Assembly (NCBI GenBank): GCA_035542415.1
Contig: DATKLM010000116.1
Location: forward strand, 12,129 to 36,128
DNA from: Spirochaetia bacterium
Lineage (GTDB): Bacteria > Spirochaetota > Spirochaetia > SZUA-6 > Fen-1364
DNA length: 24,000 nucleotides
Direction of reading: 5' to 3'
How positions within the stretch are numbered: position 1 is the first letter of the stretch; each line of letters begins with the position of its first letter. The notes beneath the pieces were generated by a model, which worked only from the letters and a program-made list of their open reading frames with translations, made no database searches and had not been told where the DNA came from. Shown here in pieces: positions 1 through 18,744 of this stretch. The position numbers were made by a program, and so were the translations under genes.

Positions 1-3000
1 CGAGCAGCTCGTCCCGCTGCGTGGTGAACGTCTCCCGCACGGTACCGATGGACGCCTCGGCTTCGCTGGCAAGCCGCGAAATCTTTTCCGCCGTGGCCAC
101 CTCCGTCTCCGACAACTGCTGACGCGCCCTGCCTTCCCAGGCAACCACCTCCCCCCGGGAAGCATCCAGGAGCTCGGTGAGCTCCTTCGTTCCGGACTCC
201 AGTCCCGCGGCGAGGTCCTTGAGCCGGCCTTCGATCTCCCGGTGCATCCGGCGCGTGCCTGCATCCAGATTGTCCTTGACGGCGGCGATTTCCTTTTCCA
301 CGGAGAGGGAGGATTCGCGGCGCGTCTTCTCCACGTCGGCCCGCAGAGTCTCGGCCATGGTCTCCACGGCGTGCTCGGAGGAGGCCAGCCGGATCTTCAG
401 ATCTCCTTCGAAAGCCCCGACCTTCTCTTCCAGGTCCGCCTGCCACGCCGTGAACTTCTCCACCATGGCCGTGGATCGCTGCCGCAGGTCCGCGAAGAAC
501 TCGTCTTCAAAGACCGTCAGCCTCTTCTCCACGTCCTGGTACGCCCGTGTCTTCAGATCCTCTAGGCCGGACTGCACTTCAGAGAGCCCGGCGTGCAGCT
601 GCTCCCGGGCATTCGCCGCGGCAGCCACTTCCGCCTGCCAGCCGCTGACGAGGTTCGCGGCGATTCCCTTCATCTCCGACCGGGCACCGGCGGCCATCTT
701 CTCCATGCTTTCCGACAGGGACGCGCGCAGCGCGTCAACGTCATGGGAGGATTCCTCCAGGCCCTTGATCCGGTAGTCCACGTCTCCCTGGTAGTCCGCA
801 AGGCGAAGCTCGATGGTTTCCACGCTCTTCGCGAAAGCGGCCTCGTTGGCCCGGATGCGGGCCGCGAGCCGGGAGAACACCTCGTCTTCCAGCGTTTCAC
901 CGCGCTGCGCCGCCCGGGTCAGCTTCTCCTTGAGGTCCGCTTCGAAAGCCTCCCCGCCCTTCGCGGCCCGGGCGAGCTTTCCGTTCAGCTCGGCGTCGAA
1001 TGCCTCGCCGAGCTGGCCGGCCTGCGCGAGCTTTTCGTTCAGCTCCGATTCCAGGGTCTTGCCGCGCTCGGCGGCCCGGGAAAGCCTCTCATTCAGATCC
1101 GCTTCGAACGCCTCCCCGCGCTCGGATGCCCGGGAGAGCCTCTCCTCAAGATCCTCTTCGAAGGCGTTGGCGCGCTCGGACGCCTTGGACAGCCTTCCGT
1201 TCAGGTCCGCCTCGAGCGCCTCGCCGCTGCCCGACACCCGGGAGATCCTCGCGTTCAGGTCTGCTTCGAGAGCGTTGGCCCGCTCCGCGGCTTTGGAAAT
1301 CCGCGCGTTGAGATCCGCTTCCAGTGCATCCCCGCTGCCGGCTGAACGTGAGATCCTGGCCTTCAGGTCGGCGTCCAGCTCCTCCACGCGGCCCGCAGCC
1401 TGGGACAGCTTTCCGTCCAGGTCCGCCTCGAAGCCATGTGCGCGCTGCACCGCCCCCAACAACTTCTCATTCAGGTCCGCTTCAAAGCCCTTGGCGCGCT
1501 CGGCTGCCTGCGAATACTTCCCGTTGAGATCTGCTTCGAAGCTCACGGCCCGTTCCGCGGCCTTGGCGAGCTTCCCGTTCAGGTCCGCTTCAAAGCCGGA
1601 TGCCTTCTCCACGGCCTTTGCAAGCTTTCCGTTGAGATACGCTTCATATCCCTTCGCCCGCTCGATGGCCTGGGCGAGCTTGCTGCCAAGATCAGCCTCG
1701 AATGCCTTGCTCCGTTCGGACGCTTTGGCCGTCGCGCCCTCGAGCTCGGCGTCGATGCCCTGTGCCCGCTCGGCGGCCTTGGACAGTCGTCCGTTGAGCT
1801 CCGACTCCAGCGCGCCGGCGCGCTCCATGGCCCTGGAAATCCTGCCGTTCAAGTCAGCTTCGAAACCGGACGTCTTCTCTACCGCTTTCCCTATCTTTCC
1901 GTTCAGGTCTGCCTCGAGGGCCTTTCCCCGCTCGGCTGCCTGCGCCAGCTTTCCATTCAGGTCCGCTTCGAAACCCGACGCCTTCTCCACCGTTTTGGCG
2001 AGCTTTCCGTTCAGGTCGGCTTCGAATCCCTTGCCGCGCTCGACCGCTCGCAGAAGCTTGGCGCCGAGATCCGCCTCGAACGCCTTCCCGCGCTCCGCGG
2101 CGCGCGCCAGCTTGCCGTCCAGCTCCGTTTCGAAGGCTTCGCCAAGCTGTCCCGCCTGGGTGAGTTTCTCCCTCAGCGCGGCCTCGATGGCTTCTCCATT
2201 CTCGGCGGCGCGGGAAAGCCTCTCATTGAGGTCCGTCTCAAAGGCGTCCGCCCGCTGAGCTGCCTGCTGGAACCTGTCGTCCAGGTCCGCATCGAGCTCT
2301 TTGCGCCGCTCCGCGGCGGCGTTGAGGCTGGAGACAAGCTCCGCCTCGAAAGCCTTGCCGCGCTCCGCCGCTGCGGCGAGCTTCACCGCAAGGTCCGCCT
2401 CGAACGTCTTCCCGTGCTCGGCGGCCTGGGACAGTCTCCGGGAGAGCTCCTCCTCCACCGCCTTGACGCGCTCGCCGGCCTTGGAGACCTTTCCGTTGAG
2501 ATTCGCTTCCAGGGCTTCGAGTGACTTCGACAGATAGGCGGCACGCTCCTTCTCCGCCTGCTCTTCACGGGCCTCCAGGCGCGCGATGTAGGCGGAGAAG
2601 TCCTTGAGCTTCTTCTCCGACGCGGCAACGCTCGCTGCGAGCGCACCCATCTTCGCCTCGACGGCGCCGACGAGTTCCTTCCGCACGCCCTCCATGGCCT
2701 GGCGGGCCCGCGCTGTCAGGCCGGCCTCCACCTCGGGGGCGCGCTTCTCAGCCTTTTCCAGGCGGGCCATCGTTTCACCGATCTTCCGCCCCACGGCGTC
2801 GGCCAAGTCGGACTCCTCTCGGAGCCTCCGAAGCGCCTGGTCCACGCGGCCGGACTGCGAGGCGAGCAGCGAAAGGCCGCGCTCGGAGTCCGCGATCCTC
2901 TTCTGAATCGCTTCCACCTCGGCTGACCTCTCGAGGAGAGCCCCCTCTGTCTGGCGCATGCGGGCTGCCATCTCCCGCCCGACCTTGAGGCTTTCCTGCA

Positions 3001-3190
3001 GTTCCTGCGCGAGGCTGCGAAGCTCGCCGGTGCGCTGTTCGACGAAGTTGGCGATGTTCTCGCTGATCTTGTCGCTGAATCTCTTCAGCTTTTCCAGTGA
3101 TCTGTTGTTTCTGTCGAGTGCTCGGAAGATGGCCAGGATTAGAAGGACAGCAACAAACGTGATCAAATTACCGATAGAGAAAATCGGCAT
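1..3190 (-). CDS. Membrane-anchored, repeat-rich alpha-helical (coiled-coil-like) protein; 3'-partial, at least 1063 aa, runs off window start
   Basis: Not in the supplied ORF track because there is no stop inside the window. Own minus-strand translation: ATG at 3190-3188 with GGGAGGGGGG 4 nt upstream, giving MPIFSIGNLITFVAVLLILAIFRALDRNNRSLEKLKRF... The frame stays open to position 2. I checked the start region, the whole 839-2512 repeat block, and 1-181 (...TELLDASRGEVVAWEGRARQQLSETEVATAEKISRLASEAEASIGTVRETFTTQRDELL). Composition is A/E/L/K/R-rich like a real protein, whereas the plus-strand ORFs over the same DNA are S/A/R-rich shadows. Confidence 0.85.
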   Translation of the reverse strand, partial: MPIFSIGNLITFVAVLLILAIFRALDRNNRSLEKLKRFSDKISENIANFVEQRTGELRSLAQELQESLKVGREMAARMRQTEGALLERSAEVEAIQKRIADSERGLSLLASQSGRVDQALRRLREESDLADAVGRKIGETMARLEKAEKRAPEVEAGLTARARQAMEGVRKELVGAVEAKMGALAASVAASEKKLKDFSAYIARLEAREEQAEKERAAYLSKSLEALEANLNGKVSKAGERVKAVEEELSRRLSQAAEHGKTFEADLAVKLAAAAERGKAFEAELVSSLNAAAERRKELDADLDDRFQQAAQRADAFETDLNERLSRAAENGEAIEAALREKLTQAGQLGEAFETELDGKLARAAERGKAFEADLGAKLLRAVERGKGFEADLNGKLAKTVEKASGFEADLNGKLAQAAERGKALEADLNGKIGKAVEKTSGFEADLNGRISRAMERAGALESELNGRLSKAAERAQGIDAELEGATAKASERSKAFEADLGSKLAQAIERAKGYEAYLNGKLAKAVEKASGFEADLNGKLAKAAERAVSFEADLNGKYSQAAERAKGFEADLNEKLLGAVQRAHGFEADLDGKLSQAAGRVEELDADLKARISRSAGSGDALEADLNARISKAAERANALEADLNARISRVSGSGEALEADLNGRLSKASERANAFEEDLEERLSRASERGEAFEADLNERLSRAAERGKTLESELNEKLAQAGQLGEAFDAELNGKLARAAKGGEAFEADLKEKLTRAAQRGETLEDEVFSRLAARIRANEAAFAKSVETIELRLADYQGDVDYRIKGLEESSHDVDALRASLSESMEKMAAGARSEMKGIAANLVSGWQAEVAAAANAREQLHAGLSEVQSGLEDLKTRAYQDVEKRLTVFEDEFFADLRQRSTAMVEKFTAWQADLEEKVGAFEGDLKIRLASSEHAVETMAETLRADVEKTRRESSLSVEKEIAAVKDNLDAGTRRMHREIEGRLKDLAAGLESGTKELTELLDASRGEVVAWEGRARQQLSETEVATAEKISRLASEAEASIGTVRETFTTQRDELL
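839..2512 (-). repeat. 31 tandem in-frame 54-bp repeats encoding 18-residue units, consensus about FEADLNGKLAKAAERGKA
   Basis: 1674 bp = 31 x 54 exactly. Units read off the minus strand include LEANLNGKVSKAGERVKA / VEEELSRRLSQAAEHGKT / FEADLAVKLAAAAERGKA / ... / FEADLKEKLTRAAQRGET / LEDEVFSRLAARIRANEA. Leu is at unit position 5 in 30 of 31 units. No insertion or deletion breaks the register. The DNA motif ttcaggtccgcttcgaa recurs at 54/108-bp spacing. Confidence 0.9.
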
Positions 3191-3217
3191 TTGTCCCCCC
3201 TCCCAGGAGTTTCCTAG

Positions 3218-3246
3218 ATAATAGACCTATCCCGGAGCGCTGTCAA
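3218..3246 (-). promoter_or_regulatory. Sigma70-type promoter for the repeat-protein gene: TTGACA, 17 nt, TATTAT
   Basis: Minus strand reads cgTTGACAgcgctccgggataggtcTATTATctaggaaactcctGGGAGGggggacaaATG. The -35 is at 3246-3241 and contains the TGA stop of the upstream gene. The -10 is at 3223-3218. The spacer is exactly 17 nt. The predicted 5'UTR is about 20 nt and carries the SD. Confidence 0.6.
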
Positions 3247-4649
3247 CGAGGTTCTGGGAGGAAAAAAGTGCCGTTCGAATCGACGCGGACGAGATTCACG
3301 TATTCATCGGGATAGCGAGAGGCGAGAGAGGCAGCGCTCGTCTCCTTGTTTCTTTCCATGACGACGAGACGGAAGTCCCCGTTCGCGTCGAACCACGGAA
3401 AGAGAACGACCACGTGATGGTGCCGGCGCAGGAGAGGACTCGAGCCGGCGGGAGCACCTTTCGCGCGGGCGTTCACGGAGCCCAGGTAGAAGGTCCCCGC
3501 CTGCTGGCGGGCTTCGAAGTACAGGAGGGCGCGCAGAGAGCCCACGGGATAGCCGACGTCACGCAGCCAGGGAATGCGGTCGGAGTCGCGGACGTCCAGC
3601 GCATCCGGCCCGGGCATGACTCCCGAACGCTCGCGCTGCAGAGCGCGGCCGAGCCCGCGGGACCAGTCCAGCCCGAAGTACGGGTCCTGCTCCTCCTCGT
3701 AGCGCGCGCTCCACGCCGTTCCCCTCTGGTCGGAGTCCCGGGATCTGAGCTCGGATATGTCGGTGAGGCTTCCGGTGAGCGGCGCGTAGAAGCCGTCGAT
3801 GATCCACTTGGCGAAGCCGGAGCAGTTGAATCCGCCCCGGCCGGCCGGCGCCCGTTCGCCGGTGGCGATGAACACGAGCCTGCCGGCAGCGTCCATCGCG
3901 CCATCGTCCATGTCGCGCAGTTGATGAAGCCGGGAGCGCACCGCGTCCACGATGGCGGCAATCCGCGCGTCGCCGGGTCCCTGCTCGGGAGAAAGGACGA
4001 GGCGCCAGTCCACCGAGGTGCGGCTCAGGTCGACGATCCGGGAGAAGGGCGCGGTCAAAAGCGTCTCGAAACGGGCAGGAAGGAGAACGTGCGTCTGGAA
4101 CTCCAGGCCGTACAGGACGACGTCCATGACGGTGCGGTCGGCCTGGGGGAAGATCCGCAGAAAGCAGCCGGGATCGTTCTGCACGAAGACTTTCGCCTGG
4201 ATGAAGCTTCCGTCGGCAAGGCTCCGCTTGATGATGAAGGTGCCGGCGTTGTCCAGGCGGAACCCCCGCGCGGAACGGTTGGAGAACACGAGGAACGCGG
4301 CCCCTTCCTGGAGATCCGCGCGGAAGGAGACCTCCGCCGTGGATTCCGTCTGGCGGATGACCCGCGGCGGCATGGCGGCAGCGTCCCGGACGGGAGCAAA
4401 GATCGTGTCCCGCATCAGGGAGCGCGCTTCCCAGTTCTCCGGAAGGGAACCCAGGGCAGCGCCATCCCCGAGCGGCGTTCGGGCGGACAGGGAAGGGGCT
4501 CCAACAAGAGCGAGCAGAGAAGAAAGCAGCAGCGCGGCGGGGCCTAGACAGGGACGTCGAGGGCGAGCCTTGCCAGGGACGGCGTACCCGCCGAACGGGT
4601 ACTCCCGTACGGCCGAAAGCGAGCCCCTAGACAAGGAGAGTGTCTTCAT
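3243..4649 (-). CDS. Secreted or periplasmic protein of unknown function (468 aa) with a possible NlpC/P60-like Cys...His motif pair
   Basis: Track ORF 3243-4919, trimmed to ATG 4649 (MKTLSLS...) because the upstream 270 nt lie inside the preceding gene in another frame. Signal-peptide-like segment: RRPCLGPAALLLSSLLALVGAPSLSA|RTP. GGFNCSGFAKWIIDGF (Cys276, TGC at 3824-3822) resembles the G-x-DCSGF nucleophile motif. RRHHHVVVLFPWFDANGD (His410-412) resembles the His strand. Confidence 0.7.
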   Translation of the reverse strand: MKTLSLSRGSLSAVREYPFGGYAVPGKARPRRPCLGPAALLLSSLLALVGAPSLSARTPLGDGAALGSLPENWEARSLMRDTIFAPVRDAAAMPPRVIRQTESTAEVSFRADLQEGAAFLVFSNRSARGFRLDNAGTFIIKRSLADGSFIQAKVFVQNDPGCFLRIFPQADRTVMDVVLYGLEFQTHVLLPARFETLLTAPFSRIVDLSRTSVDWRLVLSPEQGPGDARIAAIVDAVRSRLHQLRDMDDGAMDAAGRLVFIATGERAPAGRGGFNCSGFAKWIIDGFYAPLTGSLTDISELRSRDSDQRGTAWSARYEEEQDPYFGLDWSRGLGRALQRERSGVMPGPDALDVRDSDRIPWLRDVGYPVGSLRALLYFEARQQAGTFYLGSVNARAKGAPAGSSPLLRRHHHVVVLFPWFDANGDFRLVVMERNKETSAASLASRYPDEYVNLVRVDSNGTFFLPEPR

Positions 4650-6447
4650 CAATGCGGTCCCTGAGGCCTCCCCGTTTCGCGGCCAGGATTTCACGGTCCG
4701 CGGCGAACAGGGCGCTGATCTCGATGGCGTGAATGGACCTTCCGTCCTGATCCCGGGGAACCGTGACTCCGCAGGAGGAAAGCCACCGGGCCGCCTTTTC
4801 GACCTGGCCGCGGATGCACGTCTCCACGGAATCGAGGCCTTCGCGGTTCTTGAGCGGCGCGAACTCTTCCGCCCGGTCGGTTTCGAAAAAGAGAGCCTTC
4901 CGGGCAAGCGGGATGGCATCGAAAATGAACTTCTCCATCTTCACGGCTTCTTCTTCTACAGTGTCGGCGCCCGCGGATGCCGGTCTGAGCGCCTTCACCT
5001 TCTTGCGCGCGATATGGTAGGGAAGAGCGAGGCCGGGCCGTGAAAGGAAGGCGGCGTTCAGCGCATGAATGGCGATGGACGCCTGGGAATAGAGGAGCCT
5101 GCCGTCCTCTCCGCAGGCGCGCATGAGCCGTTCGTCGAGGTCGGAGTATTCGATGACCGCGGGCCTCCCGGCACGGGTCACGATGACTCCCAGCTTCTCC
5201 TCCGGATACGCCTTTGCAACGACCTTGGAAGAGATCTCGGAGCCTTCCCTGCGGTGGAAACCCAGGAACACGGGGTCCGGCACGCGGACGAGGGGATTGT
5301 CCACCTGGAAATACGACAGCTCCTCGATCCCCCGCTCGTGGATATCCGCCAGAGCGCCGGACTGCACCAGGGCGTCGATGATTCCGCCATGGCCGTCCGG
5401 ATTCAGGAGAAGCCCGCCGTCCGGTCCCATCACAAGGCCGCCGTCCGTCGAGAGAGAAGGAAGCGTCCCCTGGGAAAAGAAGATCACCGTGTCGCTCCCC
5501 AGCCCGAACCAGCGCTCGCCGCGGAAGTACTCCTCCGTGGCGGAACGGTTCAGCAGGCTGGTCATGATGAGCCAGGGAATCTGCGCGCCGTACCACCGCC
5601 GGGCGGCGAGAATCTTTTCCGCGTGGAGGGCGAAGAGGCTGAGCCGGCGGATCGGGCTGATGGGGTACATCCCCTTCGGTCCGTCGAATCCCAGCCGGGA
5701 TCCCTGGCCTCCCGCCACGGTGAGAACGGCCGTGCGGCCGCGACGGATCAGCTCTTCTCCGATGTCGCGCGCCTCGCGGTCCGCGGCGCTTGCGGACAGC
5801 GGCACGTAGGGCGCAGGCTCGGGGACATCCGGCTCGCGGGTCTCCCCCTCGGGCGCATCGCCAAGCCGGGCACGAAGCTGCTTGAGCCTCTCCACGTCGA
5901 GCGACGCGAGATCCTCCAGGAGCCTGCGCTTCATGGCCTTCGGACGGGAGTCCCAGTACAAGAACAGATGCTCGTGACCCAGAGCTGAGAACTTGTCCCG
6001 GATCTCTTTTTCCATCATGAGGTCTCCCAGCAATGCCTCCGCCTGCGTATCTGGCGTCTGACCGTCCGCCGCCTGTCCGTCTTCGGTGCGCCCTTCTTCC
6101 GTGCGCTCTTCGTCCGCGTGGCCGCCCAGCGGGCGCCGCATACGGCGAACCGTCATGAGGGCGTCGATGAGATCGGAGCGCACCTGGGCGAACCGGGCGC
6201 GCAGGTCCGGCTCCCCCGCTCCCAACTCCTCCCACATGCGCCGCTTCGCCCCTTCTATCGTGAACTTCCGCTCGTAGAGCAGGTGACGGAACCTCATGAG
6301 CAGCCTGATCTCGCTCGCCGTGTATTCTCGCCTGCCGGAGAGACCCTTGCGGGGCGAGAGCAGCGGAAGCTCGCTCTCCCAGTACCGGATGATGTACGGC
6401 TTGACCCCGAGGAAACGCGCCACTTCCCCGATGCTCCACGATCTCAT
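4627..6447 (-). CDS. MerR-type HTH domain fused to a eukaryote-type UDP-N-acetylhexosamine / UDP-sugar pyrophosphorylase (UDPGP/UAP family), 606 aa
   Basis: ATG at 6447. N-terminus WSIGEVARFLGVKPYIIRYWESELPLLSPRKGLSGRREYTASEIRLLMRFRHLLYERKFTIEGAKRRM is a MerR HTH plus wing. An acidic low-complexity linker follows. UAP/UDPGP signatures: GHEHLFLYWD, LTVAGGQGSRLGFDGPKGMYPI, NPDGHGG, YFQVDNPL, MEKFIFDA. Confidence 0.85.
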   Translation of the reverse strand: MRSWSIGEVARFLGVKPYIIRYWESELPLLSPRKGLSGRREYTASEIRLLMRFRHLLYERKFTIEGAKRRMWEELGAGEPDLRARFAQVRSDLIDALMTVRRMRRPLGGHADEERTEEGRTEDGQAADGQTPDTQAEALLGDLMMEKEIRDKFSALGHEHLFLYWDSRPKAMKRRLLEDLASLDVERLKQLRARLGDAPEGETREPDVPEPAPYVPLSASAADREARDIGEELIRRGRTAVLTVAGGQGSRLGFDGPKGMYPISPIRRLSLFALHAEKILAARRWYGAQIPWLIMTSLLNRSATEEYFRGERWFGLGSDTVIFFSQGTLPSLSTDGGLVMGPDGGLLLNPDGHGGIIDALVQSGALADIHERGIEELSYFQVDNPLVRVPDPVFLGFHRREGSEISSKVVAKAYPEEKLGVIVTRAGRPAVIEYSDLDERLMRACGEDGRLLYSQASIAIHALNAAFLSRPGLALPYHIARKKVKALRPASAGADTVEEEAVKMEKFIFDAIPLARKALFFETDRAEEFAPLKNREGLDSVETCIRGQVEKAARWLSSCGVTVPRDQDGRSIHAIEISALFAADREILAAKRGGLRDRIDEDTLLV

Positions 6448-12044: not shown

Positions 12045-13574
12045 TCAACGGGCGTACTCCACGACGCGCATCTCCCGGATGATCGTGACCTTGATCCTGC
12101 CCGGATACTTCAGCTCCGTCTCGATCCGCTTGGCGATGCCCTTGGCGAGCTCCTTGGCCTGCTCGTCACTGATCTTCTCATTGTTGACGAGGATGCGAAG
12201 CTCGCGGCCCGCCTGGATGGCGTAGGCCTTGTCGACCCCTTCGAAGTCCTCCGCGATGGCCTCGAGGTTCTCCAGGCGCTTGAGATAGTTGTCCAGGGTC
12301 TCCTTGCGCGCGCCGGGCCGGGAGGCGGAGATGGCGTCCGCGATCTGCACGACGACCGCCTCCACGCTCTCGGGCTCCACGTCTCCGTGGTGCGCGCCGA
12401 TGGCGTTGATGACCCGCGCGTCCTCACCGAGCTTGCGCGCGAGCTCCATGCCCACCTCGATGTGGTTGCCGTCCCCGTCCGTTTCTACGCCTTTCCCGAT
12501 GTCGTGGAGAAGGGCCGCCCGCTTGGCCAGGTCCACGTTCGCCCCGATCTCCGCGGCGAGCATGCCGGCGATGAGCGCCACCTCCTTCGAATGGGCGAGG
12601 ACGTTCTGCCCGTAGCTCGTGCGGTAATGGAGACGGCCAAGGGTCCGGATGGCCTCGGGGCTCATCGTGTGGATTCCCACCTCGAAGAGCACCCGCTCGC
12701 CTTCCTCGTAAATGGTCTGGGCGATCTCCTTGCCGACCTTCTGGACGATCTCCTCGATCCGCGCGGGGTGGATGCGCCCGTCGGAGATGAGGCGGCTCAG
12801 CGCCGTCTTGGCGATCTCCCGGCGGATGGGATCGAAGCAGGAGATGACGACCGCCTCGGGCGTGTCGTCGATGATGATGTCCACGCCGGTCAGTGTCTCC
12901 AGCGTGCGGATGTTGCGGCCCTCGCGGCCGATGATGCGGCCTTTCATCTCGTCATTCGGCAGGCTCACCGTGGTGACGGTGACCTCCGAGGCGACGTCCG
13001 TGGCAAGACGCTGGATCGTCGTAACGAGGATGTCGCGCGCCTTGCGGTCCGCGCTGAGCTTCGCCTCCTGCTCGATGACGTTGATCGTGACCTGGGCGTC
13101 GTGTCGGGCCTCGTTCTCGAGGCTCTGTATAAGCAGCTTCTTGGCCTCCGCCCTGGTAAGGCCCGAGATTCTTTCCAGCTCTGCGGCTATCCGCTCGCTT
13201 TCCTGCTGCAGTGCCGCTTCCTGTTCCGCGGCTCCCCTCTCCCGGTTGCTGATTGCCCTCTCTTGTTTTTCAAGAGACTCAATGCGCTTTTCTAGGTTTT
13301 CTTCCTTCTGAAGGAGGCGTCTTTCGGTGCGCTGGAGCTCGATTCGGCGCTCCCGCGACTCTTTTTCCAGCGTGTTCCGCTCCCGCAACAGCTGGTCCTT
13401 GCTCTCAAGTATCGCCTCTTTCTTCTTTGCTTCCGCTTCTCTTAAGGCCTCCGTGACGATTCTCGTCGCCCTTTGCTCTGCCGATGAAAGCTGAAAACGT
13501 GCGTAAAGCCATCGAATTAGCCAACCTAGAAATAAACCGGCGAGAGGAAGAATGAAGTACGCCAGAGTGCTCAT
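12045..13574 (-). CDS. rny: Ribonuclease Y (N-terminal membrane anchor, coiled coil, KH and HD domains)
   Basis: [24 protein letters not shown] anchor, K/E-rich coiled coil, KH motif [26 protein letters not shown], and HD motif HSKEVA...LLHDIGK. I place the start at ATG 13574 because GGAGGAAG sits 4 nt upstream. The track GTG at 13586 is itself part of that SD. Confidence 0.95.
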
Positions 13575-13606
13575 ATCTTCCTCCACTCGCGTGCTATGTA
13601 AAAGAC

Positions 13607-13635
13607 AGCTTAAATCACATGAGCCGGTTTGTCAA
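13607..13635 (-). promoter_or_regulatory. Sigma70-type promoter for rny-ymdB-tlyA: TTGACA, 17 nt, TAAGCT
   Basis: Minus strand reads cccTTGACAaaccggctcatgtgattTAAGCTgtcttttacatagcacgcgaGTGGAGGAAGATATG. It lies in the only clearly AT-rich intergenic gap of the window (13575-13699). Confidence 0.55.
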
Positions 13636-13699
13636 GGGAAGCCTTTTGGCGTTGATCTGGGATATCACGAAGAGTTTCGTATCATATTGATGTAAAAGG

Positions 13700-16600
13700 C
13701 TAGAGAACGATGAGTCTTTTCAGGATTGTTGAAATCACGATATCGCTGTCAGAGGCAAATGCCAGAAGAGCGTAGGCATCCTGGTTTCGGAATGTCACCG
13801 GCAGCATGACGATCCGCTTCATGTACCGCAGGTCCTCGAAGTCGAACAAGGCCCTCCAGTACTGGATCTCCGCCGGGTTCCGATTGACCGCTACTGCCTT
13901 CCGCTGGGACAGGAGGAGCTTGAACATCCGCCCGTCGACCAGGAAGCGCAGGGCATGACCGCTCTTTTCGCTGAGACCGACGGTCAGGTCGACAAGGAAG
14001 CCCTCCGGCTTTTTCAGAAGCAGGCAGGCGCTGACCGCCGACACTCGGCGGGATACCTCGACAAGGGACTTCATCTGCGACGAGTGCGTGAACGAACGTG
14101 GATAGAGAGACAGGAACTCGTCATAGTCGATGCCGTTTCTCTTGAGGTGCATGGAGGCGGTCTTCTCACGGTCTGCGGAAAGGACCTCCTCCCGCTCCTC
14201 GTCCTGCCTGTCTCCAACCTCTTCGGAAAGATCGATCGTCTGCTCTTCCCGGATCAGGTCCCCGATTCCGGCGAACAGGTCCTCATCCCGGGGTTCGCGC
14301 GCGTCCTCAGCCGCGTTCTTCACGACCTCCCGCGCAATCTCCAGAAGGCCGCCCTGGCGCGCGGCGCTCCGGGCGGCCGACACGTCGCGCGGCGGCTGCG
14401 CCGGGCTGGCGTACAGCTCGTCCTTGATCCTGAAGACGCCGTCCTCCATGACGATGGCGGACTTGGACTCGTCAACGATTTTCTGGAGCTCGGGGATGGA
14501 CCACGCCTTGATGGTTCCCCCGGCGATCAGGCCCGGGATCTCGTCCTCCGCGTCCTCCACGTCGTACCCGGGTTCCGTGCCGCCCTCGGGGATCTCTTCG
14601 AGCGCTTCCAGCTCTTCCACCTCCGCCTCGGCGACGGTCTCTTCCCGGGCAACGCTGGAAGCAGGGGGCTTGACCGCCGTGGCGATCGCTTCCGCCTCTT
14701 CTTCAGCCGCCCCGGCGGGACTTTCCCTGCCTTCGAAATAGCCGGGAGGGGCGTCGTCCGTGCCGAACGTGAGCAGCACGCCGCGCTCGTCCAGGACCCT
14801 CTCTTCCATCTCCTCCTCATCCGCCGGAGGAAGGAGCTCCAGGCCCTCCTCGTACGGGAGCGGCGGCAGGGGCTGGATCTCCTGGAGCGACTCGAGCTCT
14901 TCCAGGGACTCCTCGGGAGAATCGATCCGGGTGTCGTAAGATTGCAGGTCGCGAATAATGGCGGCCGGCTCGGGGGCCTGGCGGATGCCTGACCGCGCCT
15001 CGGGGAACGGGGTCACTGCCGTGAGAGGCGGGGCCTGCTCCGCGAGCTCGTCTTCCCCCACGGACTCGAGCTCTCCGATCTCCTCCGCCGGGGCGGGCTG
15101 CGCGGGCCCCGGAGCGCCGGGCGCTTCGGCGAAACCCGCCTCTTCCAGAGAGACCTCTTCGAGATCTGCCTCCTGCGCTGCCGCGGCTGCGTCGGTCACC
15201 TCGGAGGGAACCTCCAGCGTGCCGGCCTCGTCGAGGGCAGGCGCCTCAACGATCTGGGACTCATCCACGAGCTCGACTTCTTCAACAAATTCCGCTGAAA
15301 GCGGCTCCGCGGCTGCTTCCCTCGGGGCGGCAGCGGTTTCGTCAGACACCGCGAGAGCCTCAACAGCCTCGGCCTCTTCAACAGCCTCCGCTTCTTCGGC
15401 TTCGGCGGCTGGCGCTTCTTCGACAGCCTCCGCTTCTTCGGCTTCCGCCTCTTCTGCCTCCGGGACTGGTGCCTCTTCGGCAGCCTCGGCTTCCTCTACC
15501 GCTTCAGCTTCCTCGATGCCCTCAGCTTCCTCGACGCCTTCAGCCTCTTCAACAGCTTCCGCTTCTTCGACAGGAGCCTCTTCGACGGCCTCGGCCTCCT
15601 CAGCCGGCGCTTCTTCGACGGCCTCAGCTTCCTCTACCGCTTCGGCTTCCTCGACGCCCTCAGCCTCTTCAACAGCTTCCGCTTCTTCAAGCTCCTCGGC
15701 TTCGGCGGCAGGGGCTTCTTCCACCGGCTCGGCTTCTTCTACGCCCTCCGCTTCTCCGACTTCCTCGACAGCTTCCGCCTCCGCGGGAGCCTCCGCGGAG
15801 GCAATGGGCGCAGCCTCTGCCTTCAAGGCGCGCGCCGCCGGCTTCTGCGCCGGCCCGGCGATGCTGGCGTTCTGAAGCGCCGTCTTGATCAGGGACTCCA
15901 GCCGGGAGATGTCCAGCGCCCCGATGGCAGGCGCCTGGGGCGCCTGGGAGCGGCGCGAGATGAGGTCGATGATCTCGTTCCAGCTCTTGGCCATGTACTC
16001 GTCGATGACAGGCTTCTGCTTGCGGGACACCCTCCCGATCCCCCGCTGGATCTGCCACGTGATCTCTTCACGGCGGGACTCAAGCTCCCGCGACCACCTG
16101 CTCCAGTCCGCTCCGCCCGGCCCTTCGATCAGCTCCGTCATGAGCTGGATCTGGAAGCGCTTCACTCTCTGCCGAAGGACGTCCAGCGGATCGGAGCGGA
16201 GGTTGATAAGGAGGTAGACGATGAGGAAGACGGTGAGGAAGAAGGTGGCAAGCAGAAGTCCCTTCATCAGGTCCGTCATCTCGAAAACGGAGCTGGAAAC
16301 GAGGAGGCTCGCCACGCCTCCCGGATGCAGCCGGACGGCGAACGCCAGGAACGCCTGAGGCTTTCCTCCCTCTCCCGAAAGGGTCAAAGGGCTGCTGAAG
16401 GACGGAACGTCGGGATGGTCCCGCCACATCTGCACCAGGGCGGACGACACGGCATTCATGTCGCCGGCGCTGAAGTTCAGGAGGACGCCGTCGCTCTTGA
16501 TGAGAGAGACACTGGTAACGGCGATCTGCGGCATGAGCTGGAGGTCTGCCAGGAGGTCGAGGGCGCCCAGGTAGAAAACCGCCGTTCCGCGGTACTGCTG

Positions 16601-17149
16601 GGCGTTGCCGGCCCCGGTGGGCTGATACACGGGAGCGCTGTAGATCAGTCTCCCCTGGTCGCCGTCAATGAACAGCCGCGGATCGTCTCCCGGGCCCAGG
16701 AGCACCGTGGACACCGGGACGGAAGGCTCCACCTCCGTGTAGTTGCGGTAGGCGAACTTTTCGGGAGTCAGGTTCTTCGCGTCCGCGGCAATCGAGCTGA
16801 AAACGATCTTCTGGCCGTCGGCGGTGATGACGCGCACTCCCGCCACGTGAAGGGTGCCCAGGGCATCCGCCCACTGGCGCATGACCGCCGGGGTCAGGGT
16901 GGGCTCGAAGGAAGCTACGGCGAAGTCCTTCTTGGCCACCGCGGCGAACCGCTCGAGATTGGCGGAGTGGAACTTCTCGATCCGTCCGCCGAGGATCCCG
17001 ACCTGGGTGACGTAGCCCTGCTGGACACGGGGGAGGAAGAAGCTGGCCTGGAGGACGTTGAAGAGACCCGAGAATGCGAGGACGGCGAATCCCGCGAACA
17101 GGAGAACGGAAACGAGCAGACTGATCGCTACTTTGAGACCCTGCCGCAT
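13700..17149 (-). CDS. Large two-TM protein: Cache-like extracytoplasmic domain, long acidic disordered cytoplasmic region with hexapeptide repeats, GAF-like C-terminal domain; function unknown
   Basis: ATG 17149. TM1 is VAISLLVSVLLFAGFAVLAFSGLF. The ~260-aa outer domain has a Cache-like pattern (RLIYSAPVY...YRGTAVFYLGALDLLADL). TM2 is LLLATFFLTVFLIVYLLINL. An E/A/P/V-rich region of roughly 550 aa follows. The C-terminal ~150 aa has a GAF-like pattern (…RIVMLPVTFRNQDAYALLAFAS…). Domain names rest on pattern recognition only. Confidence 0.8.
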   Translation of the reverse strand: MRQGLKVAISLLVSVLLFAGFAVLAFSGLFNVLQASFFLPRVQQGYVTQVGILGGRIEKFHSANLERFAAVAKKDFAVASFEPTLTPAVMRQWADALGTLHVAGVRVITADGQKIVFSSIAADAKNLTPEKFAYRNYTEVEPSVPVSTVLLGPGDDPRLFIDGDQGRLIYSAPVYQPTGAGNAQQYRGTAVFYLGALDLLADLQLMPQIAVTSVSLIKSDGVLLNFSAGDMNAVSSALVQMWRDHPDVPSFSSPLTLSGEGGKPQAFLAFAVRLHPGGVASLLVSSSVFEMTDLMKGLLLATFFLTVFLIVYLLINLRSDPLDVLRQRVKRFQIQLMTELIEGPGGADWSRWSRELESRREEITWQIQRGIGRVSRKQKPVIDEYMAKSWNEIIDLISRRSQAPQAPAIGALDISRLESLIKTALQNASIAGPAQKPAARALKAEAAPIASAEAPAEAEAVEEVGEAEGVEEAEPVEEAPAAEAEELEEAEAVEEAEGVEEAEAVEEAEAVEEAPAEEAEAVEEAPVEEAEAVEEAEGVEEAEGIEEAEAVEEAEAAEEAPVPEAEEAEAEEAEAVEEAPAAEAEEAEAVEEAEAVEALAVSDETAAAPREAAAEPLSAEFVEEVELVDESQIVEAPALDEAGTLEVPSEVTDAAAAAQEADLEEVSLEEAGFAEAPGAPGPAQPAPAEEIGELESVGEDELAEQAPPLTAVTPFPEARSGIRQAPEPAAIIRDLQSYDTRIDSPEESLEELESLQEIQPLPPLPYEEGLELLPPADEEEMEERVLDERGVLLTFGTDDAPPGYFEGRESPAGAAEEEAEAIATAVKPPASSVAREETVAEAEVEELEALEEIPEGGTEPGYDVEDAEDEIPGLIAGGTIKAWSIPELQKIVDESKSAIVMEDGVFRIKDELYASPAQPPRDVSAARSAARQGGLLEIAREVVKNAAEDAREPRDEDLFAGIGDLIREEQTIDLSEEVGDRQDEEREEVLSADREKTASMHLKRNGIDYDEFLSLYPRSFTHSSQMKSLVEVSRRVSAVSACLLLKKPEGFLVDLTVGLSEKSGHALRFLVDGRMFKLLLSQRKAVAVNRNPAEIQYWRALFDFEDLRYMKRIVMLPVTFRNQDAYALLAFASDSDIVISTILKRLIVL
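15350..15796 (-). repeat. About 24 tandem 18-bp units encoding an (E-E-A-E-A/G/P-V)-type polyacidic tract, with higher-order ~120-140-bp duplications
   Basis: The protein reads AEAVEEVGEAEGVEEAEPVEEAPAAEAEELEEAEAVEEAEGVEEAEAVEEAEAVEEAPAEEAEAVEEAPVEEAEAVEEAEGVEEAEGIEEAEAVEEAEAAEE... In DNA, cttcctctaccgcttc[a/g]gcttcctcga ... cagcctcttcaacagcttccgcttcttc occurs twice (about 15488-15567 and 15625-15686). Confidence 0.85.
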
Positions 17150-17180
17150 GAGAAACGGTTTCCCTCTTCCTTCTCTATCG

Positions 17181-17205
17181 GCTCACGGGGTGATGCCCCG
17201 TGAGC
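17181..17205 (-). terminator. Perfect 10-bp GC-rich hairpin between rplQ and the downstream gene; possible terminator, attenuator or RNA-stabilising structure
   Basis: GCTCACGGGG tgatg CCCCGTGAGC. On the minus-strand RNA it sits 36 nt after the rplQ stop, but CGAUAGAG follows it, so there is no U-tract. A T4 run follows only in the plus orientation. Confidence 0.35.
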
Positions 17206-17240
17206 ACGATTTTCGGGGAGGCCCTGCGGCGTCGACTGAG

Positions 17241-17657
17241 CTAACCTTCCTTCTTCGCCGCTTCGGAGGCTTCCTTCTTCTTGCGTTTCCGCTCCCGCTC
17301 CTTGCGGTCCACGAGCTCCAGGATCACCATCTCGGAGGCGTCCCCGAAACGGCGGCCCATCTTCAGGATCCTCGTGTACCCGCCCGGCCTCTGATTATAG
17401 CGCGGCGCGATGTCGACGAAAAGCTTGTTCAGGATCATGCCGTCATTGATCGAACGGGCGGCCATCCGGCGGTTGTGCACGGAGTCCACCTTGGCCCTCG
17501 TGATGAGCTTCTCCGCGAGGCGGCGCGCCTCCTTGGCCTTCGGCATGGTGGTGCGGATCCGCTCGTAACGGAACAGGGCCTTGGCCTGCGCCTTCAGGAG
17601 CGCCTTGCGGTGGGCCGAGGTGCGGCCCAGCCGGTTGTAGCTACTGCGATGATTCAT
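17241..17657 (-). CDS. rplQ: 50S ribosomal protein L17
   Basis: ATG 17657 with [30 protein letters not shown]... aligns from residue 1 with L17. The Lys/Glu-rich C-terminal tail is [22 protein letters not shown]. The start overlaps the rpoA end by 17 nt. The track start 17687 is an extension. Confidence 0.95.
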
Positions 17658-18744
17658 TTTCCTCTCCAAGGGCCACCGCCCCGACACCCGGTACGGCCGC
17701 CGGAACCTCTCCTGCCAGCTGCTTCTTCAGCTGCTTCTTCAGCGCCGAGTAGTCCTTCATCCCCAGGTCCAGGCCGCGGGCCTGGAGCTTGTCCCGGATC
17801 TCCTGGAGGCTCTTCTTCCCGAAGTTCCGCGTCTTGGTGATCTCTTCTTCCGTCTTCTTCGTGAGATCTCCGATCGTGCGGATGTTCGCGTTGCGCAGGC
17901 AGTTGCTGGAGCGCACGGAGAGCTCCAGCTCCTCCACCGGCGTGTCCAGGAGCGCGCGGATGCGCTCCTCGTCCTCATCCACGTCCTCATCTCCCCCGGC
18001 CTCCGACTCGTCGAAGTTGATGAAGATGGTGAAGTGGTCCTTGGCGATCTTCGCCGCCTCCGCGAGGGCATCGTCCGGGGTGATGGTCCCGTCCGTCCAG
18101 ATCTCGAGGATGAGCTTGTCATAGTCCGTCCGCTGCCCCACCCGCGTGTTCTCCACGCTGTACTTCACCTTCTGGATGGGGGAGAAGATCGAGTCGATGG
18201 GAATGGTCCCAATGACCTCGATGTACTTCTCGTTTCTCTCCGCGGGCACGTACCCGCGCCCGAGGTTGATCTGGATCTCGAACTCCAGGTTGGCCTTGTC
18301 CATGAGCGTGGCGATGGGGAGCTTCTCGTTGAAGATCTCCACGTCGTTGTCCACGGCGAGGTCGCTCGCGGTGAGCGTCTTCGAGCCCTTCGCCTCCACG
18401 ATGATCGTCTTCTCCTCCAGGTCACCGCCGAGCCTCACCTGGACCTGCTTGAGGTTGTTGATGAAGTCCGGCGTATCCTCCACCATCTGGGGGATGGGCT
18501 CGTACTCACTCGCAATGGTGTGCGGGGTGCCGTCATCCTTGTACGTCGTGATCTTCACGGCGGAGACGGCGTATCCCTGGATGGAGGACAGGAGGATGCG
18601 GCGCAGGGTATTGCCGATGGTGACGCCGTAGCCGCGCTCGAACGGGTAGGCGACGAACCGGCCGTAGTTGGCCTCCACCTCGCTGTGCTCGAAGGTGATG
18701 CCCTTCGGTTTCTTGAATCCCTTCAGAAGGTTCTTTCTTACCAT
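17641..18744 (-). CDS. rpoA: DNA-directed RNA polymerase subunit alpha
   Basis: NTD motif [21 protein letters not shown] HhH motif [23 protein letters not shown]. Located between rpsD and rplQ. ATG 18744 with GAGG upstream. Confidence 0.96.

Follow-up and report, generated by a model that had tools for sequence, protein, structure and literature searches.

The window analysed here is a stretch of 24,000 nucleotides from a Spirochaetia bacterium (GTDB lineage Bacteria; Spirochaetota; Spirochaetia; SZUA-6; Fen-1364; GenBank assembly GCA_035542415.1, contig DATKLM010000116.1, positions 12,129 to 36,128). Its beginning encodes, on the minus strand, a protein of the SpiroCoCo coiled-coil family in which one 18-residue, five-turn segment of the membrane-proximal helix has been amplified from one copy to 30. 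The amplification was ancient, stepwise, tandem and in frame, leaving one ancestral unit and 29 extra ones. We consider family membership and the 1-to-30 amplification, taken together, to be nearly certain. The wider reading, which includes both and in which the array lengthens a near-straight coiled-coil tether, formed between chains, by up to ~78 nm while preserving its phase, we find reasonably probable. The block had been picked out in an earlier note, made from the sequence alone, as 31 uninterrupted 18-residue units at 839–2512; that note did not mention the coding strand, which is minus, or the truncation of the gene by the window start.

The family was not recognised at that stage, and is now identified by models NF047514 and NF047515, both of which match above cut-off. 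NF047514 (SpiroCoCo_N) and NF047516 (LA_3659 family) match residues 9–222 at 141–143 bits (cut-offs 75 and 36; SpiroCoCo_N scores 143), and NF047515 (SpiroCoCo_C) matches residues 1270–1580 at 300 bits (cut-off 125) on the full-length gene, beyond the window. This gene, recovered by looking up the neighbouring MerR-UDPGP protein, occupies positions 13258–18018 of ENA contig k141_561715 (L001) and encodes 1586 residues, of which the protein in the window is an exact prefix. SpiroCoCo is an NCBIfam family that is named but uncharacterised, and the array protein does not represent a new fold family; a full-text literature search for SpiroCoCo or LA_3659 found no paper. All 80 of the best genome loci are Spirochaetota or Spirochaetia metagenome-assembled genomes, with a best N-domain identity of 67%. 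Complete genes of the family run from ~890 to 1866 residues (median 1081), which places the array protein well above the median.

Comparison with these relatives reveals the origin of the array. A hidden Markov model (HMM) of the unit finds 30 copies here and none or one, always at residues ~226–243, in 43 homologues and 80 species-level genome loci. In the syntenic orthologue P0007 the unit occurs once, as FQADLNGKLSQAAKRGET. This protein is 67% identical to the array protein over 913 BLASTP columns and collinear with it on both sides of the unit, and the two loci share the gene order MerR-UDPGP, hypothetical gene, SpiroCoCo gene, DUF362, PGI, GrpE, DnaK. The spacing from anchor to anchor across the site is 595 residues here versus a baseline of 73 (in 48 of 89 proteins), such that the insert of 522 residues is exactly 29 × 18. 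The whole block at 839–2512 measures 1674 nt, or 31 × 18 residues, without a stop or an indel, and Tandem Repeats Finder reports periods of 54 and 108 nt with 0% indels over most of it. The earlier description of the block as an exact run of 31 × 18 residues therefore stands, and only its last member has to be taken out of the repeat: 'unit 31' has a DNA identity of 0.33 to unit 30 and, judged by the alignments, is a flank kept in all orthologues that lies outside the amplification. The layout of the gene within the window is as follows.

2..3190, minus strand: SpiroCoCo family coiled-coil gene, first 1063 codons, from translation (ATG at 3190; gene cut by the window start).
3195..3204, minus strand: Shine-Dalgarno-like sequence GGGAGGGGGG (GGGAGG-type), 4 nt 5' of the ATG, read from the sequence.
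3122..3178, minus strand: N-terminal membrane anchor SIGNLITFVAVLLILAIF, residues ~5–23, from the sequence and the helix at 6–22 in the AlphaFold2 model of P0007.
2525..3166, minus strand: SpiroCoCo_N / LA_3659 domain, residues 9–222, from the NCBIfam match.
893..2512, minus strand: amplified array of 30 tandem 18-residue (54-nt) units, consensus FEADLNGKLSKAAERGKA, residues 227–766, from the unit HMM and the anchor spacing.
839..892, minus strand: 'unit 31', LEDEVFSRLAARIRANEA (LEDEVFSRL...), conserved flanking helix, from alignment to P0007 and other homologues.
2..838, minus strand: downstream helical rod modules (ADYQGDVDYR..., FEDEFFADLR...), conserved and collinear with P0007.

The predicted architecture is a short N-terminal membrane anchor followed by a very long cytoplasmic helical rod and a small C-terminal helix-turn-helix-like domain (DUF6115; DUF2802/FipA-like). 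A basic stretch, RALDRNNRSLEKLKRFSDK, directly follows the anchor, and the corresponding motif FSIGNLIT...RALDRNNRSLEKLKRFSDK is found family-wide, including in the array protein. By the positive-inside rule, and by analogy with the experimentally mapped layout of FipA, most of the protein is expected to lie in the cytoplasm. The C-terminus of the family is near-invariant (...KLxHQGWxxxEIxRxxxLSRGEVELILEL), and the array protein has the motif QGWSVQEIxRVTQLSRGEVELILELAPK.

The units are old. Their DNA is on average 59% identical in pairwise comparison, with a maximum of 80%, and identity by codon position is 0.67, 0.70 and 0.43, the third positions being near random. The proportion of synonymous differences (pS) is 0.63, which is near saturation at a third-position GC content (GC3) of 0.80, against 0.32 for nonsynonymous differences (pN), giving a dN/dS ratio of ~0.30. 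These low identities, near-saturated pS and low dN/dS indicate old copies held by purifying selection on both sequence and length. They do not fit concerted evolution, which the earlier note had offered as one of two explanations of the strict unit length. Its other explanation, strong selection on register, is borne out by the lack of any indel in 30 old and diverged units and by the whole helical turns inserted elsewhere in the family (see below). Residual block similarity persists within the array at a lag of seven units (units 9–12 versus 16–19, 72% mean amino acid identity; units 10–11 versus 17–18, 81%), at a lag of two (units 22–25) and at a lag of 21 (units 6–9 versus 27–30), a pattern which points to growth by stepwise multi-unit duplications. 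Open reading frames on the plus strand over the block (813–2258, 1436–2524 and others) were rejected as shadow frames because both the homology and the codon-position conservation fit the minus-strand frame only.

Searches beyond the family returned no comparable array. With the repeat by itself as query, a word-indexed search of 5.8 billion proteins gave P0025 (E = 3e-5) and nothing convincing as a similar array. Sixteen weak matches (best 75 bits) came from an exhaustive profile search of 1.84 billion representatives, and those inspected were all unrelated repeat proteins; the window's own protein is absent from both libraries. A scan of JGI metagenome contigs with the degenerate pattern FEADLNG[KR]L found the array only on the JGI contig of the same lineage. 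On the sequences compared, the feature is real and unusual: among the relatives examined, the array lineage (uncultured peat/soil spirochaetes) is the only one with 30 copies of this unit. One of the proteins from the profile search, P0048 (515 residues), is unrelated and has a few 18-residue repeats of its own, AEADLDNKIKEEIKRAKK, in which an E-x-DL-x-x-K-I motif resembles the window unit.

The unit displays a narrow and strongly conserved hydrophobic face. Position 1 is hydrophobic in all 31 segments of the block (F17 L10 I2 V1 Y1) and position 5 is Leu in 30 of them, both as first reported. Position 9 was said to be L/I/F/Y in 30 of 31, and we count 29 (L22 I5 F1 Y1), or 30 if Val is included. 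Position 12 is Ala in 27/31 and position 16 is Gly or Ala in 25/31. On a 100-degree helical wheel these five core positions (1, 5, 9, 12 and 16) fall at 0, 40, 80, 20 and 60 degrees, confirming the ~80-degree arc described before. The core spacing is 4-4-3-4-3, equivalent to a hendecad plus a heptad, or 18/5. The stripe is flanked on one side by basic residues (K8, R15) and on the other by an acidic one, position 2 being Glu or Asp in every segment. The 'conserved Gly' of the earlier note was overstated, Gly being found in 14/31 segments at each of positions 7 and 16 and in 8/31 at position 18.

The hydrophobicity spectrum of the array, for which a Fourier check had been proposed, peaks at 3.60 residues with a power of 394 (the maximum of 200 shuffles was 93) and has no heptad peak at 3.5. 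A larger Fourier peak at 2.25 residues is seen also in the non-repeat helical rod; a beta-strand reading of it was rejected, 2.25 being the aliased second harmonic of 3.6 that a narrow stripe produces. The hydrophobic periodicity is 3.63–3.65 along most of the rod, with 3.65 in the downstream modules and ~3.45 only near the C-terminus. The block contains no Pro and 21% Ala, and together with an AlphaFold2 model that is helical throughout this composition supports a helical block. A single-alpha-helix domain was considered and rejected on the basis of the conserved F/L/L seam. One turn of an undistorted helix takes 3.63 residues, and an 18/5 periodicity is accessible to coiled coils through a delocalised stutter (PMC4786415). 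On that figure 18 residues make 4.96 turns and the seam therefore lags by ~15 degrees per unit, which should give a supercoil with a very slight left-handed twist and a pitch of ~65 nm. The straight stripe proposed earlier is accordingly expected to be nearly, and not exactly, straight.

In other lineages, too, this site is a hot spot of expansion (L007–L086 and P0001–P0043, between residues ~190 and 275), with inserts of 29, 40, 80, 91, 98, 109, 116, 142, 164, 171, 182, 222, 273, 284, 309, 348, 394, 400 and 804 residues. Among the 12 inserts no longer than 222 residues, the Rayleigh R peaks at 0.96 for a period of 3.643, compared with 0.27 at 3.5, and none of 5000 jittered sets reached 0.96 after the same period scan. 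Taken at 3.63 residues per turn, eight of the nine shortest inserts come to within 0.12 turn of a whole number, where 24% would be expected under the null. The lengths 394 and 804 do not fit whole turns; in the former, at least, an anchor has itself been duplicated. The lengths of the family's other internal repeats (11, 22, 29, 40, 44, 58, 102, 120 ... residues) likewise add up from quanta of 11 and 18 residues. Loci of the Spirochaetes bacterium RBG_16_67_19 clade (L024 and L033) have their own diverged 18-residue repeats, EAEARAGKMKEALAQAGA, in ~6–8 copies at the same site (residues ~300–450), and these are not detected by the HMM of the window unit. Since insert lengths correspond to whole helical turns, selection on register is a property of the whole family.

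We predicted structures for the array and for the orthologue using AlphaFold2. For the array, an in-register self-alignment could not be made, as MAFFT aligned overlapping 12-unit windows by their true overlap (432 columns, useless), and the single sequence of residues 200–830 was folded as a monomer instead. The model is all helix, in agreement with the fold anticipated in the earlier note, albeit at low confidence (predicted local distance difference test, pLDDT, 64; predicted template modelling score, pTM, 0.22). It is divided into three helices of ~200 residues each (H2–200, H209–416 and H421–629), with breaks at Gly/Ser-rich unit ends:

1970..1993, minus strand: first predicted helix break, residues 400–407 (TVEKASGF, end of unit 10), from the DSSP gap at model residues 201–208, pLDDT <50.
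1334..1345, minus strand: second predicted helix break, residues 616–619 (SAGS, unit 22), from the DSSP gap at model residues 417–420, pLDDT <50.

The model of P0007, made from a 35-sequence alignment, has an overall pLDDT of 63 and a pTM of 0.25. It comprises a transmembrane helix at 6–22 and a continuous helix at 34–289 which passes through the ancestral unit and has the top pLDDT of the N-terminal half (71–75). This helix breaks at EGSGGD and is followed by more long helices and by three short C-terminal helices (pLDDT ~74). In these models the helix continues without a break through the unit's NG and RGE, and a Foldseek search of the array model against the PDB found nothing with E below 9.

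Taken together, we favour the reading in which whole units, with their core of F/L, L, L/I, A and G/A at positions 1, 5, 9, 12 and 16, would make the helix longer while keeping its seam in phase. The array would then be a continuous amphipathic helix that pairs with the equivalent helices of other copies of the protein to form a nearly untwisted coiled coil. As such it may act as a rigid spacer of up to ~78 nm (522 residues × 0.15 nm) between the membrane anchor and N-domain on one side and the remaining rod and C-terminal binding domain on the other. There is no compensating insertion elsewhere in the protein, which argues against pairing with a distal arm of the same chain and for pairing of the array with itself or with other copies. 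The basic and acidic flanks of the stripe favour a parallel, in-register arrangement, which a common membrane anchor would also impose. Several points weigh against this picture. The array model is split into three helices instead of one, and both models are of low confidence (mean pLDDT 63–64, pTM 0.22–0.25). Gly occupies core position 16 in 14 of 31 segments and position 7 equally often, an uncommon feature in stable coiled coils. From the phase rule it follows that insertions arose inside an amphipathic helix, which is no proof of one extended rod. Finally, the coiled-coil assignment comes from sequence and models.

The most serious rival to this rod is an antiparallel multi-helix bundle formed by fold-back of the array, for example with three arms of ~11 units each, so that the insertion would add bulk or a shorter stalk of ~27–30 nm and not one of 78 nm. 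The division of the model at the KASG and SAGS unit ends speaks for such a bundle, and makes a shorter spacer possible; Gly/Ser-rich variants of positions 16–18 also recur in the array. Moreover the core is near-palindromic, and the columns suggest that antiparallel packing would bring F1 against G16, L5 against A12 and L9 against L9 with big–small steric complementarity. On the other hand, breaks are predicted at only two of the 30 unit ends, in a model with a pTM of 0.22 and a pLDDT below 50 at the turns, and like flanks of the stripe would presumably face each other in an antiparallel bundle. We regard this arrangement as possible, although unlikely. Far less credible still is an array devoid of structural meaning, produced by neutral expansion of the repeat or by faulty assembly. 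Repeats are indeed prone to slippage and mis-assembly, and an independent JGI contig (Ga0335070_10032339, L002) stops within unit 30. This contig nevertheless differs from the window by 4 single-nucleotide polymorphisms (SNPs) over 5,930 bp with 0 gaps, and ENA contig L001 differs from the window by 14 SNPs over 16,447 bp, again with 0 gaps; four SNPs separate L001 from L002 inside the gene, all of them synonymous. Three collinear versions that differ by SNPs and not by gaps show that the array is not an assembly artefact, and units that are at most 80% identical to one another can be assembled uniquely. Neutrality sits poorly with the dN/dS of ~0.3 and with the lack of a frameshift or stop in 1620 nt of old copies. 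The assembly collapse feared in the earlier note is thus unlikely, and the repeat-number variation that it also foresaw is seen between orthologues (1 versus 30 units) and not within the lineage.

A further alternative, raised in the earlier note, is that the array lies flat against the inner membrane on its cytoplasmic side, beside the anchor, as a lipid-surface amphipathic helix in the manner of apolipoprotein, perilipin, LEA proteins or alpha-synuclein. The straight stripe (3.6–3.67) is like that of surface-lying 11-mer helices, the anchor would hold the array close to a membrane, and the family gives sub-threshold matches to Pfam Apolipoprotein (52–70 bits, cut-off 90) and weak ones to apolipophorin-III in the PDB (E ~0.006). 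For the present protein, however, the Apolipoprotein (PF01442) matches reach 52–60 bits and their best stretches, residues 939–1062 and 1028–1196, fall outside the array. The units themselves are weakly amphipathic and acidic, with a mean hydrophobicity <H> of 0.07, a mean hydrophobic moment <muH> of 0.30, a net charge of −0.6 per unit (−19 overall) and a discriminant D of 0.09; only one of 30 exceeds 0.68. Both the formula for D and this threshold are those of HeliQuest. An invariably acidic residue stands directly beside the stripe, the apolar face spans just 80 degrees with Ala or Gly at two of its five positions, and the block lacks Pro punctuation. On these grounds a lipid-bound array is disfavoured, and we think it decidedly improbable.

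What the rod might present at its far end is suggested by the C-terminal domain. DUF6115 (PF19610) matches the full protein at 28.2 bits and its C-terminal 110 residues at 36 bits (cut-off 27), over profile positions 39–133 of 134; a literature search for DUF6115 or DUF2802 found no paper mentioning DUF6115. DUF2802 (PF10975) matches the isolated C-terminus at 26.5 bits (E = 7.5e-6), below the Pfam cut-off of 33.5. All 15 of 15 diverse SpiroCoCo C-termini match both DUF6115 (best E = 5e-9) and DUF2802 (best E = 2.3e-7). DUF2802 defines FipA, a protein of 163 residues which recruits FlhF to the cell pole via conserved residues G110 and L129, and which consists of a periplasmic N-terminus of ~5 residues, one transmembrane helix, a cytoplasmic coiled coil and the C-terminal DUF2802 (PMC11620751). 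In a gapless hmmscan match, residues 76–106 of the 110-residue C-terminus align to DUF2802 profile positions 36–66, with the invariant G83, E99 and L102 at positions 43, 59 and 62. Assuming that residues 68–135 of VpFipA span the full 68-position profile, its three fully conserved residues G110, E126 and L129 would fall on the invariant G, E and L of SpiroCoCo. On the full-length gene (L001:17665–18015) the invariant motif QGW...LSRGEVELILEL would accordingly map, without gaps, onto the part of DUF2802 that holds the FlhF-binding residues of FipA.

We consider the C-terminal motif likely to be homologous to DUF2802/FipA, and a function of SpiroCoCo related to FlhF is possible. The authors of the FipA study reported homologues to be absent from spirochaetes (PMC11620751). 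The motif is also generically helix-turn-helix-like, with weak matches to HTH_23, sigma-70 region 4 and Pax (PDB), which makes DNA binding an alternative for the C-terminus, and no flagellar genes, flhF and flhG included, stand beside the gene in L001, L004–L006 or L132–L134. A bolder and rather unlikely proposal is that SpiroCoCo proteins are giant FipA-type tethers, in which the C-terminal G...E..L motif would recruit FlhF or another polarity or flagellar factor and the rod length, set in whole-turn steps (inserts of 29 to 804 residues; 522 here), would serve as a molecular ruler. If this were true, rod length would set the position of the partner relative to the membrane anchor, for example so as to place or space subpolar periplasmic flagellar motors. 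Among known natural 18/5 'ruler' segments, the 30 × 18 array would in that case be the longest, and spirochaetes would own a FipA-like determinant reported as absent from them.

Directly upstream of the SpiroCoCo gene (window 3243–4649, minus strand) is a gene for a protein of 468 residues with no Pfam match, the start of which overlaps the end of the MerR-UDPGP gene; its counterpart in the syntenic locus L004 has 325 residues. The MerR-UDPGP gene itself (4627–6447, minus strand) encodes a 606-residue fusion of a MerR-type helix-turn-helix and a UDP-sugar pyrophosphorylase (PF01704), and is found in the same position in related genomes. Close SpiroCoCo relatives share this type of housekeeping synteny. 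In the more distant loci L005, L133 and L134, the genes upstream encode a large tetratricopeptide repeat protein, an ExbB/MotA-like and an ExbD-like protein, a ~300-residue protein (with a weak TonB_C match in L005 only) and a HAD hydrolase, and GrpE-DnaK often lies downstream of distant SpiroCoCo genes. Further along the window (13700–17149, minus strand) is a gene for a predicted membrane protein of 1149 residues with an acidic hexapeptide array, (EEAEAV/EEAEGV)n, at 15360–15760 (DNA period 18) and no Pfam match on record. Rfam and tRNA scans of the window found no family and no tRNA.

The array is of wider interest in several respects. A 540-residue in-register 18/5 repeat in 30 diverged copies provides a ready-made alignment for near-straight coiled coils, about which much less is understood than about heptads and which are of interest to protein design. 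The whole-turn quantisation of indel lengths is direct evolutionary evidence of selection on helical phase in a rod protein. SpiroCoCo is moreover conserved across spirochaetes (the LA_3659 model is named after a Leptospira gene), and its FipA-like C-terminus bears on the placement of periplasmic flagella.

Compared with its own relatives, the array protein has the same terminal domains and the same anchor and C-terminal motifs, and differs in having 30 units as opposed to none or one. Apolipoproteins A1, A4 and E, apolipophorin-III, perilipin and LEA proteins also have tandem amphipathic helical repeats with a near-straight stripe, whereas the present unit is of 18 and not 11 or 22 residues, lacks Pro punctuation, and has a narrow apolar face with weak, acidic amphipathicity. 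Pfam gave no match to LEA_4 or perilipin, neither Pfam nor PDB sequence searches matched EzrA or the spectrin repeat, and the PDB sequence searches yielded weak matches only, to apolipophorin-III for the protein and to a Pax helix-turn-helix for the C-terminus. FipA of the gamma-proteobacteria is similar in its layout and its DUF2802-type C-terminal motif, but is far shorter (163 versus 1586 residues), and its gene adjoins flhF-flhG, which the SpiroCoCo gene does not in the loci examined. Scy and FilP of Streptomyces, which are DivIVA-related, are likewise very long, Ala-rich, non-heptad bacterial rods (~3.64–3.67) expanded by internal duplication (PMC9858780), and SpiroCoCo inserts follow a period of 3.64. 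SpiroCoCo differs from them in being membrane-anchored, in its unit of 18 residues (11+7) instead of 11 or 51 and in its phylum, and the protein has no Pfam match to DivIVA at E <= 1. Scy and FilP are dimeric hendecad rods with Ala-rich cores (PMC9858780), with which the A12 and G/A16 core positions of the array fit well.

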